Source: Escherichia coli
Lineage (GTDB): Bacteria; Pseudomonadota; Gammaproteobacteria; Enterobacterales; Enterobacteriaceae
Direction: 5' to 3' (one strand)
Assembly: GCF_013122565.1 (NCBI RefSeq)
Contig: NZ_CP053258.1
DNA length: 64,000 bases
Position numbers and translations under genes: made by a program. The first letter of the stretch is position 1, and each line of letters opens with the position of its first letter. The notes beneath the pieces are model-generated. The model was not told where the DNA came from. It saw only the letters and a program-made list of their open reading frames with translations, and did no database searches. Positions 14,345-49,873 of the stretch are shown here, one piece after another.

Positions 14345-15463
14345 ATGCATAACCAGGCTCCAATTCAACGTAGAAAATCAACACGTATTTACGTTGGGAA
14401 TGTGCCGATTGGCGATGGTGCTCCCATCGCCGTACAGTCCATGACCAATACGCGTACGACAGACGTCGAAGCAACGGTCAATCAAATCAAGGCGCTGGAA
14501 CGCGTTGGCGCTGATATCGTCCGTGTATCCGTACCGACGATGGACGCGGCAGAAGCGTTCAAACTCATCAAACAGCAGGTTAACGTGCCGCTGGTGGCTG
14601 ACATCCACTTCGACTATCGCATTGCGCTGAAAGTAGCGGAATACGGCGTCGATTGTCTGCGTATTAACCCTGGCAATATCGGTAATGAAGAGCGTATTCG
14701 CATGGTGGTTGACTGTGCGCGCGATAAAAACATTCCAATCCGTATTGGCGTTAACGCCGGATCGCTGGAAAAAGATCTGCAAGAAAAGTATGGCGAACCG
14801 ACGCCGCAGGCGTTGCTGGAATCCGCCATGCGTCATGTTGATCATCTCGATCGCCTGAACTTCGATCAGTTCAAAGTTAGCGTGAAAGCGTCTGACGTCT
14901 TCCTCGCTGTTGAGTCTTATCGTTTGCTGGCAAAACAGATCGATCAGCCACTGCATCTGGGGATCACCGAAGCCGGTGGTGCGCGCAGTGGGGCAGTAAA
15001 ATCCGCCATTGGTTTAGGTCTGCTGCTGTCTGAAGGCATCGGCGACACGCTGCGCGTATCGCTGGCGGCCGATCCGGTCGAAGAGATCAAAGTCGGTTTC
15101 GATATTTTGAAATCGCTGCGTATCCGTTCGCGCGGGATCAACTTCATCGCCTGCCCAACCTGTTCGCGTCAGGAGTTTGATGTTATCGGTACGGTTAACG
15201 CGTTGGAGCAACGCCTGGAAGATATCATCACTCCGATGGACGTTTCGATAATCGGCTGCGTGGTGAATGGCCCAGGTGAGGCGCTGGTTTCTACACTCGG
15301 CGTCACCGGCGGCAACAAGAAAAGCGGCCTCTATGAAGATGGCGTGCGCAAAGACCGTCTGGACAACAACGATATGATCGACCAGCTGGAAGCACGCATT
15401 CGTGCGAAAGCCAGTCAGCTGGACGAAGCGCGTCGAATTGACGTTCAGCAGGTTGAAAAATAA
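14345..15463 (+). CDS. ispG: HMBPP synthase (MEP pathway)
   Basis: 372 aa. Confidence 0.95.
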
Positions 15464-15573
15464 TAACGTGATGGGAAGCGCCTCGCTTCCCGTGTATGAT
15501 TGAACCCGCATGGCTCCCGAAACATTGAGGGAAGCGTTGAGGGTTCATTTTTATATTCAGAAAGAGAATAAAC

Positions 15574-47677: not shown

Positions 47678-48967
47678 ATGACGCGCCGTGCTATCGGGGT
47701 GAGTGAAAGACCGCCACTTTTACAGACAATCCCGCTTAGTTTGCAACATTTGTTCGCCATGTTTGGTGCAACCGTCCTGGTGCCCGTCTTATTTCATATT
47801 AACCCGGCGACTGTACTGTTATTTAACGGTATTGGAACGCTGCTGTATCTCTTCATCTGTAAAGGGAAAATTCCGGCTTATCTTGGTTCCAGCTTTGCCT
47901 TTATTTCACCGGTATTGTTACTGTTGCCGTTAGGGTATGAAGTCGCGCTGGGCGGCTTTATTATGTGCGGCGTGCTGTTCTGCCTGGTTTCTTTTATCGT
48001 GAAGAAAGCGGGGACCGGCTGGCTGGACGTGCTGTTTCCACCTGCGGCAATGGGCGCAATCGTTGCCGTCATCGGTCTGGAGCTGGCGGGCGTAGCTGCC
48101 GGTATGGCGGGTTTACTCCCGGCTGAAGGGCAAACGCCAGACTCCAAAACCATCATCATCTCTATTACCACCCTGGCGGTCACGGTTTTAGGTTCCGTGC
48201 TGTTTCGTGGTTTCCTGGCAATTATCCCGATTTTAATTGGCGTGCTGGTGGGGTACGCGCTCTCTTTCGCAATGGGAATTGTCGATACCACGCCGATTAT
48301 TAATGCTCACTGGTTTGCGCTGCCAACCCTCTATACGCCGCGCTTCGAGTGGTTTGCCATTCTGACTATTCTGCCAGCGGCGTTAGTGGTTATTGCCGAA
48401 CACGTAGGGCACCTGGTAGTAACGGCTAATATCGTCAAAAAAGATCTGCTGCGCGATCCAGGTCTGCACCGTTCGATGTTTGCTAACGGCCTGTCGACCG
48501 TGATCTCCGGCTTCTTTGGCTCTACGCCAAATACCACTTACGGAGAAAACATTGGCGTGATGGCGATCACCCGTGTTTACAGTACCTGGGTTATCGGCGG
48601 GGCGGCGATTTTCGCTATCCTGCTTTCCTGCGTCGGTAAACTGGCTGCTGCTATCCAGATGATCCCATTGCCGGTGATGGGTGGTGTTTCGCTGCTGCTT
48701 TACGGTGTCATCGGTGCTTCTGGTATTCGTGTGTTGATCGAATCGAAAGTGGATTACAACAAAGCACAGAACCTGATCCTGACTTCCGTGATTTTGATCA
48801 TCGGCGTCAGTGGCGCGAAGGTAAACATCGGCGCGGCGGAGTTGAAAGGTATGGCGCTGGCGACCATCGTCGGTATCGGCTTAAGTTTGATCTTCAAACT
48901 GATCAGTGTGCTGCGCCCTGAAGAAGTGGTGCTGGACGCAGAAGACGCGGATATAACAGACAAATAA
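47678..48967 (+). CDS. uraA: Uracil:proton symporter
   Basis: 429 aa from ATG at 47678 with AGAGGA SD. Confidence 0.95.
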
Positions 48968-49061
48968 TGTACCGACCGGGCAGTGTTGCTGCCCGGTTCA
49001 AACATCATGGGATTCTGTGGTAAACTTCTCGCGATTTTGTGAAATCCTGGTTGAGGTATCT

Positions 49062-49763
49062 CTGAACACACCGGCACAGCTCTCTTTGCCACTTTATCTT
49101 CCTGACGACGAAACCTTTGCAAGTTTCTGGCCGGGGGATAACTCCTCTTTACTGGCCGCGCTGCAAAACGTGCTGCGTCAGGAACATAGCGGTTACATCT
49201 ATCTCTGGGCACGCGAAGGCGCGGGGCGCAGCCATCTGCTGCACGCGGCTTGCGCGGAATTGTCGCAGCGTGGCGATGCGGTGGGCTATGTCCCGCTGGA
49301 TAAACGCACCTGGTTTGTTCCGGAAGTGCTCGACGGTATGGAGCATTTGTCGCTGGTCTGTATCGACAACATTGAGTGTATTGCAGGCGATGAGTTGTGG
49401 GAGATGGCGATTTTCGATCTCTACAATCGAATTCTGGAATCGGGCAAAACACGGTTGTTGATCACCGGCGATCGTCCACCGCGGCAGTTGAATCTGGGAT
49501 TACCGGATCTCGCGTCGCGACTCGACTGGGGGCAGATCTACAAATTGCAGCCACTTTCTGATGAAGATAAGTTGCAGGCGCTACAGTTACGCGCGCGTTT
49601 GCGTGGTTTTGAACTGCCGGAAGATGTGGGGCGTTTCTTGCTGAAGCGGCTCGACAGAGAGATGCGCACGCTATTTATGACGCTGGATCAGTTGGATCGT
49701 GCGTCGATTACCGCGCAACGTAAGCTGACCATTCCGTTTGTGAAAGAAATTCTGAAGTTGTAG
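49062..49763 (+). CDS. hda: DnaA-inactivating protein Hda
   Basis: 233 aa if started at CTG 49062 ([16 protein letters not shown]...); track ORF begins at GTG 49017 (248 aa). Confidence 0.85.
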
Positions 49764-49776
49764 ATAAGGTGTTTAT

Positions 49777-49873
49777 TGTCGGATGCGGCGCGAACGCCTT
49801 ATCCGAACTACGCGAAGTTAATCCATAGTATTCGTAGGCCGGATAAGACGTGGCAAGCGTCGCATCCGGCAAT
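49777..49873. repeat. BIME: two inverted REP elements between hda and yfgD
   Basis: gtcggatgcggcgcgaacgccttatccgaactac and gtaggccggataagacgtggcaagcgtcgcatccggc. Confidence 0.7.

Follow-up and report, generated by a model that had tools for sequence, protein, structure and literature searches.

The CTG start codon of hda and the upstream in-frame GTG in an Escherichia coli chromosomal window

Introduction

The gene hda, whose product is the AAA+ protein that inactivates DnaA together with the DNA-loaded beta clamp, in the process called regulatory inactivation of DnaA (RIDA), raises a question that is easily put but that gene-calling programs answer differently in different genera, namely at which codon its translation begins. 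In the stretch of E. coli chromosome analysed here (64,000 nt, hereafter the window) hda follows upp and uraA and faces the convergent genes arsC/yfgD and bepA; the stop codon of uraA is at 48965-48967. The longest open reading frame (ORF) on the plus strand opens with a GTG at 49017-49019, ends with the TAG at 49761-49763 and encodes 248 amino acids. Codon 16 of this ORF is a CTG at 49062-49064, and counted from there the protein would have 233 residues and an N-terminus reading L-N-T-P-A-Q-L-S-L (the codons after the CTG being AAC ACA CCG GCA CAG CTC TCT TTG). That the frame happens to be open for a further 15 codons is unremarkable per se, the chance that 15 random codons contain no stop being roughly 0.49.

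The initial annotation had placed the GTG of the longest ORF and the CTG at exactly these positions, as a check against the sequence confirmed, and had favoured the CTG, giving a 233-residue Hda; in this it is borne out by RefSeq, EcoGene, initiation profiling, the residue numbering of a crystal structure and comparative genomics alike. On the evidence set out below we are highly confident that translation of hda begins at CUG 49062 to give 233 residues, that the GTG at 49017 is in frame only incidentally and that the 45 nt between the two are noncoding. The CTG start is not itself a discovery; it has been shown experimentally and is present in the reference annotation, and the current understanding of hda is unchanged by the present analysis. 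Calling the gene at 233 amino acids nevertheless matters for annotation, as ab initio callers mis-start it, and the surplus residues of overlong calls fall right on the N-terminal motif through which Hda binds the clamp.

Identity of the protein and published evidence for its start

The protein encoded in the window is identical to that of E. coli K-12 hda (b2496), and the likeness extends to the upp-uraA-hda context and to the start region, which is the same base for base; the difference consists of two synonymous substitutions in the window, at 49661 and 49683, both far from the start. From this identity the window Hda would be expected to stimulate hydrolysis of DnaA-ATP together with the DNA-loaded clamp, as in RIDA. 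The NCBIfam equivalog model for Hda, NF005982, scores 476.6 bits against a cut-off of 268 and aligns its positions 1-235 with the long ORF from residue 14 to residue 248; for TIGR03420 the score is 281.4 bits, where the cut-off is 194.8, and the alignment begins only at residue 21 of that ORF. The DnaA-type AAA+ ATPase domain (PF00308, E = 1.2e-09) and the Hda lid domain (PF22688, E = 1.8e-29) are both matched.

Comparison with curated entries, which had been proposed as a check on the CTG, gives a consistent picture. The K-12 entries NP_416991.2 and WP_001307333.1, of 702 nt, begin at this CTG; in NC_000913.3 the gene occupies 2618075-2618776 on the minus strand (NP_416991.2), and the hda coding sequence of the MG1655 record NZ_CP032667.1, also 702 nt long, corresponds to 49062-49763 of the window. 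The region itself was found by megablast in 5,425 of 5,426 complete E. coli genomes. In the EcoGene 3.0 paper (PMC3531124) hda is given a CTG start that is credited to Su'etsugu 2008. Initiation profiling, another check that had been suggested, likewise places the hda signal at the CTG: in Table S3 of the tetracycline-arrested ribosome profiling (TetRP) study of Nakahigashi 2016 (PMC4909307) the 2006 annotation of hda is listed as 45 nt longer than that of 2014, and the verdict is "3. 2014: signal at 2014 initiation site", a verdict reached by manual inspection for a gene that is weakly expressed. Among the sources found, none reports N-terminal peptides mapping upstream of 49062.

Structural work points the same way. 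In the crystal structure of the Hda-clamp complex (PMC5397184) Hda is numbered 1-233 and the clamp-binding motif is given as 6-QLSLPL-11; read from the sequence, this beta-clamp-binding motif (so named in PMC5397184) occupies codons 6-11 counted from the CTG, at 49077-49094 on the plus strand. The arginine finger is likewise found where that paper has it, residue 153 being an arginine when counting from the CTG, and the published positions Q6, L11, E17, W23, G55, R56, S57, N103, R153 and R177 fit only if the CTG encodes residue 1. Chain E of PDB entry 5X06 (5X06_E) consists of a 20-residue tag followed by MNTPAQLSL, and is the same as the window protein from the CTG codon on. The coding sequence translated in vivo runs, by RefSeq, the family profiles and 5X06 together, from 49062 to 49763 on the plus strand, with 233 codons, a CTG start and a TAG stop.

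This body of evidence bears directly on the reading given in GenBank before 2014, in which the GTG at 49017 is the true start and the 248-residue ORF the product. It has in its favour that among ORFs with a canonical start this is the longest, that it was so annotated in U00096.2 (747 nt), and that the 248-residue form (P0002) has 3510 member sequences in automatically annotated collections. However, the CTG, or a point at most two residues from it, is where curated records, the structure paper and the NCBIfam profile alike begin, and the TetRP signal sits at the CTG instead (PMC4909307). When the comparative evidence described next is added, the GTG-start reading is effectively refuted, and we give it a very slight probability indeed.

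Comparative evidence

A scan of species-representative genomes yielded 80 Enterobacteriaceae loci, with 92-100% protein identity, which together with the window make a set of 81; the addition of three loci outside that family, from Yersinia, Erwinia and Proteus, gives a wider set of 84 Enterobacterales loci. The codon aligned to the CTG at 49062-49064 (plus strand) is CTG in every one of the 81 and in the three additional genera as well (84/84), and this conservation takes its place beside the EcoGene entry (PMC3531124) and the TetRP signal in identifying it as the initiation codon. Ahead of it stands a Shine-Dalgarno sequence, GAGGT, at 49053-49057 on the plus strand, separated from the CTG by 4 nt (ATCT, 49058-49061), or by 5 nt if counted from the GAGG core. 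GAGGT is present 9 nt upstream of the CTG in 80 of the 81 Enterobacteriaceae loci, in columns that are at least 95% conserved, and the duplex predicted for it with the 3' end of 16S has an energy of -6.9 kcal/mol, whereas the 17 nt that precede the GTG are a poor match at -4.0 kcal/mol.

The 15-codon extension from the GTG (49017-49061, plus strand) is not conserved in the manner of coding sequence, and is best described as noncoding leader and promoter DNA. In 60 of 81 loci there is an in-frame stop among the 15 codons upstream of the CTG, and in 46 of 81 the stretch from the closest upstream stop to the CTG holds no in-frame ATG, GTG or TTG at all. Indels of 1 nt in a divergent strain of E. 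coli (L003) and in Salmonella (L004) disrupt the upstream frame of E. coli, and most genera have a stop or an indel in it. Downstream of the CTG the variability at the three codon phases is 0.064/0.008/0.231, compared with a flat 0.40/0.39/0.36 upstream, with no periodicity. A clear coding signature thus begins at the CTG, and the 45 nt before it are noncoding. All of this tells against the GTG, as does the fact that the GTG codon overlaps a promoter-like block that is considered below.

More distant homologues provide a further comparison. Among 135 full-length distant representatives of Hda (40-64% identity) the clamp motif has an offset of 1-8 residues from the N-terminus in 101, and the offset of 20 seen in the 248-residue form is an outlier. 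Shewanella amazonensis Hda (PDB 3BOS) and other distant orthologues share with E. coli the clamp motif within about the first 10 residues, the AAA+ base and the lid. Unlike the E. coli gene, they are called with canonical starts, the codons at the four loci sampled being GTG, GTG, TTG and ATG, which is too small a sample for any conclusion. Among the genomes sampled the CTG start appears to be confined to the Enterobacterales.

Downstream of the CTG the first canonical in-frame start is codon 9 in 43 loci, lies at codons 11-13 in 8 and is found only at codon 30 or later in 30, and any of these would cut into the clamp motif or delete it. The one that needs to be weighed for the window is the TTG at codon 9 (49086), which would give 225 residues as in K. 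pneumoniae KPN_02819; it is a canonical start, it is the first one downstream in those 43 of the 81 loci, Klebsiella hda has been annotated at 678 nt, and several database entries have 225 amino acids. Such a start would, however, remove Q6-S8 of the clamp motif, which are seen bound to the clamp in the crystal structure (PMC5397184), and codons 2-8 are under strong purifying selection, with coding periodicity. In many species, moreover, codon 9 is CTG and not TTG, and no Shine-Dalgarno sequence is suitably spaced from it. This possibility can scarcely be credited at all, and initiation at CUG 49062 remains the reading adopted here.

Conflicting annotations across genera

The practical difficulty is that ab initio callers yield an Hda of 248 amino acids in E. 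coli, 235 in Erwinia and Yersinia, and 225 in Klebsiella. Calls of 235 residues are found in Erwinia, Yersinia, Hafnia, Serratia, Proteus and others, and for several of these genera versions of 233 residues are also present in NCBI. In Yersinia, Erwinia and Proteus (L083, L084 and L085, respectively, positions 401-409) the DNA at the start reads GAG GTG CTT CTG AAY. The CTG is spaced as it is in E. coli; the GTG that has been called as the start belongs to the GAGGTG Shine-Dalgarno block and precedes the CTG by two codons. The 235-residue annotations in these three genera are probably two residues too long, although in Erwinia, Yersinia and Proteus the GTG within GAGGTG may yet serve as a start.

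For Klebsiella, the table of Kim 2012 lists K. pneumoniae KPN_02819 hda at 678 nt (225 amino acids), starting from the TTG at codon 9. The resulting protein would lack Q-L-S, the first three residues of the clamp motif. All the Klebsiella loci in our set (L022-L028 and L054) have the CTG and GAGGT at the positions found in E. coli.

The uraA-hda spacer and a putative promoter

Between the uraA stop and the CTG the spacer is poorly conserved except for three islands, namely a hairpin at 48974-48998, the block TG-n-TAAACT at 49018-49026, and the Shine-Dalgarno and start region already described. The hairpin, obtained by RNA folding on the plus strand, comes directly after the uraA stop and is GC-rich, with 11 bp, a 3-nt loop and no U-tract; its 3' arm is at least 95% conserved across the Enterobacteriaceae. 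The terminator scan of the window did not call it. It adjoins a putative -35 region, TTCAAA, at 48997-49002.

Having no U-tract, the hairpin may terminate poorly, and this lends some substance to the idea that initiation is dual, with most ribosomes starting at the CUG and a minor 248-residue isoform being made from the GTG on transcripts that read through from uraA. The upstream frame is open in E. coli and in Shigella-like strains, there is a weak GGGA 4 nt before GTG 49017, and the transcription start assigned to hda by Kim 2012 falls inside uraA. On the other hand, the TetRP class given to hda is that of the "2014 site" and not "multiple" (PMC4909307), only a minority of species have the frame open, which leaves such an isoform no conserved role, and the N-terminal clamp motif would be buried behind 15 added residues, an arrangement foreign to nearly all homologues. 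We regard a minor GTG-initiated product as most unlikely, and initiation at the CUG alone as the better account.

The second island consists of TG (49018-49019) and, after one further base, TAAACT (49021-49026) on the plus strand, and has the form of a putative extended -10 element, from which transcription would be predicted to start at about 49032-49035. This TG coincides with the second and third bases of the GTG "start codon" at 49017. The longer block TRTG-n-TAAACT (49016-49026, plus strand), which overlaps that codon, occurs in all 84 Enterobacterales loci; TRTG is the extended -10 consensus, which a G or A before the TG fits. In all 81 Enterobacteriaceae loci TG-n-TA[AGC]ACT lies 33-39 nt before the CTG, and Yersinia, Erwinia and Proteus have it too; of the 81 hexamers 71 read TAAACT, 8 TAGACT and 2 TACACT, all of which fit the form TAnnnT. 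This suggests, from sequence conservation, that TG-n-TAAACT is a proximal hda promoter, a side observation that is new. Were transcription to start at about 49032-49035, the GTG would lie outside the proximal hda mRNA altogether.

Several results qualify this picture. The block was not called by a generic promoter and terminator scan, in which it scores 4/6 + 4/6 and falls below threshold, and the only published transcription start found for hda is that of Kim 2012, the site within uraA, which has 2 reads; Kim 2012 lists none for the predicted promoter. A leader RNA beginning where transcription is predicted to start shows no significant structure (z = 0.51), and no structural switch is therefore proposed. 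Separately, the conserved TGTGGTAAA was considered as a DnaA box in reverse complement, for which the consensus used for comparison is TGTGGATAA; this was rejected, since the TGTG part varies by genus (CCGTG, TTATG) and what is conserved is TG-n-TAAACT.

The same block invites yet another explanation of the NTG aligned to 49017, in which it opens a short upstream ORF that terminates near the Shine-Dalgarno sequence and so aids re-initiation at the weak CUG by translational coupling, the two frames having been fused in E. coli by a 1-nt deletion. At all 84 loci the invariant TG is preceded by G, A or T, so that the codon always reads as a start, and in 42 of the 84 the frame runs into the TGA of TTGAGGT, 10 nt short of the CTG. 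But the frame of the NTG with respect to the CTG varies, being divided among three frames at 50, 21 and 13 loci, in counts that are phylogenetically clustered, and the idea of a conserved upstream ORF with coupling to the CUG was rejected on that ground. There is besides no Shine-Dalgarno sequence before the NTG, the TGA is missing wherever the Shine-Dalgarno sequence stands in a context such as AAGAGG or TCGAGG, and the TAAACT that follows is conserved as nucleotides, in the manner of a -10 hexamer. Coupling of this kind is very improbable.

Why a CUG codon

Ribosomes begin at the CUG at 49062, set in place by a Shine-Dalgarno sequence, GAGGU, that lies 9 nt upstream of it, and QLSLPL then forms residues 6-11. 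In reporter assays CUG initiates at about 1-2% of the level of AUG (bioRxiv 10.1101/063800). Although a single substitution would suffice to change it, the CTG is never ATG, GTG or TTG in the 84 species-level loci, and that no species has swapped it for a canonical start suggests selection for low Hda synthesis; on this argument the near-cognate CUG may have been retained by selection to keep production of the protein low. A weak start would plausibly keep Hda scarce, an idea that is not new.

A more ambitious version can be entertained, that the CUG is a regulatory device shared across the order Enterobacterales, paired with the conserved extended -10 element, and that it makes Hda synthesis sensitive to factors of start-codon fidelity, for example IF3. 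If this were true, that sensitivity would couple the rate of DnaA inactivation to the translational status of the cell. As it stands we consider it rather unlikely. A parallel is infC, which starts at AUU as a device for autoregulation by IF3; the AUU of infC is established as autoregulatory, whereas a regulatory role for the CUG of hda is only proposed. Another E. coli gene, yfjD, resembles hda in having a CTG start (confirmed by EcoGene, PMC3531124). In all three genes, yfjD, infC and hda, the near-cognate start codon goes with a normal Shine-Dalgarno sequence, and annotation had placed the start at a canonical codon close by before it was tested.

Other features of the window

Between the hda stop and arsC/yfgD, at 49775-49873, there are nested imperfect inverted repeats with arms of the GCCGGATG / CATCCGGC type, which look like repetitive extragenic palindrome (REP) elements. 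A match to the sRNA sroE (15463-15554, plus strand, 116.6 bits) is to be expected in this region of the chromosome. Near the other end of the window there are three tandem full-length matches to the sRNA ryfA, all on the minus strand (949-1253, 1627-1931 and 2309-2613), with which two matches to the IS128 sRNA, also on the minus strand (1385-1595 and 2067-2277), alternate, so that 949-2613 has a period of about 680 nt; K-12 presumably has only a single copy of ryfA.
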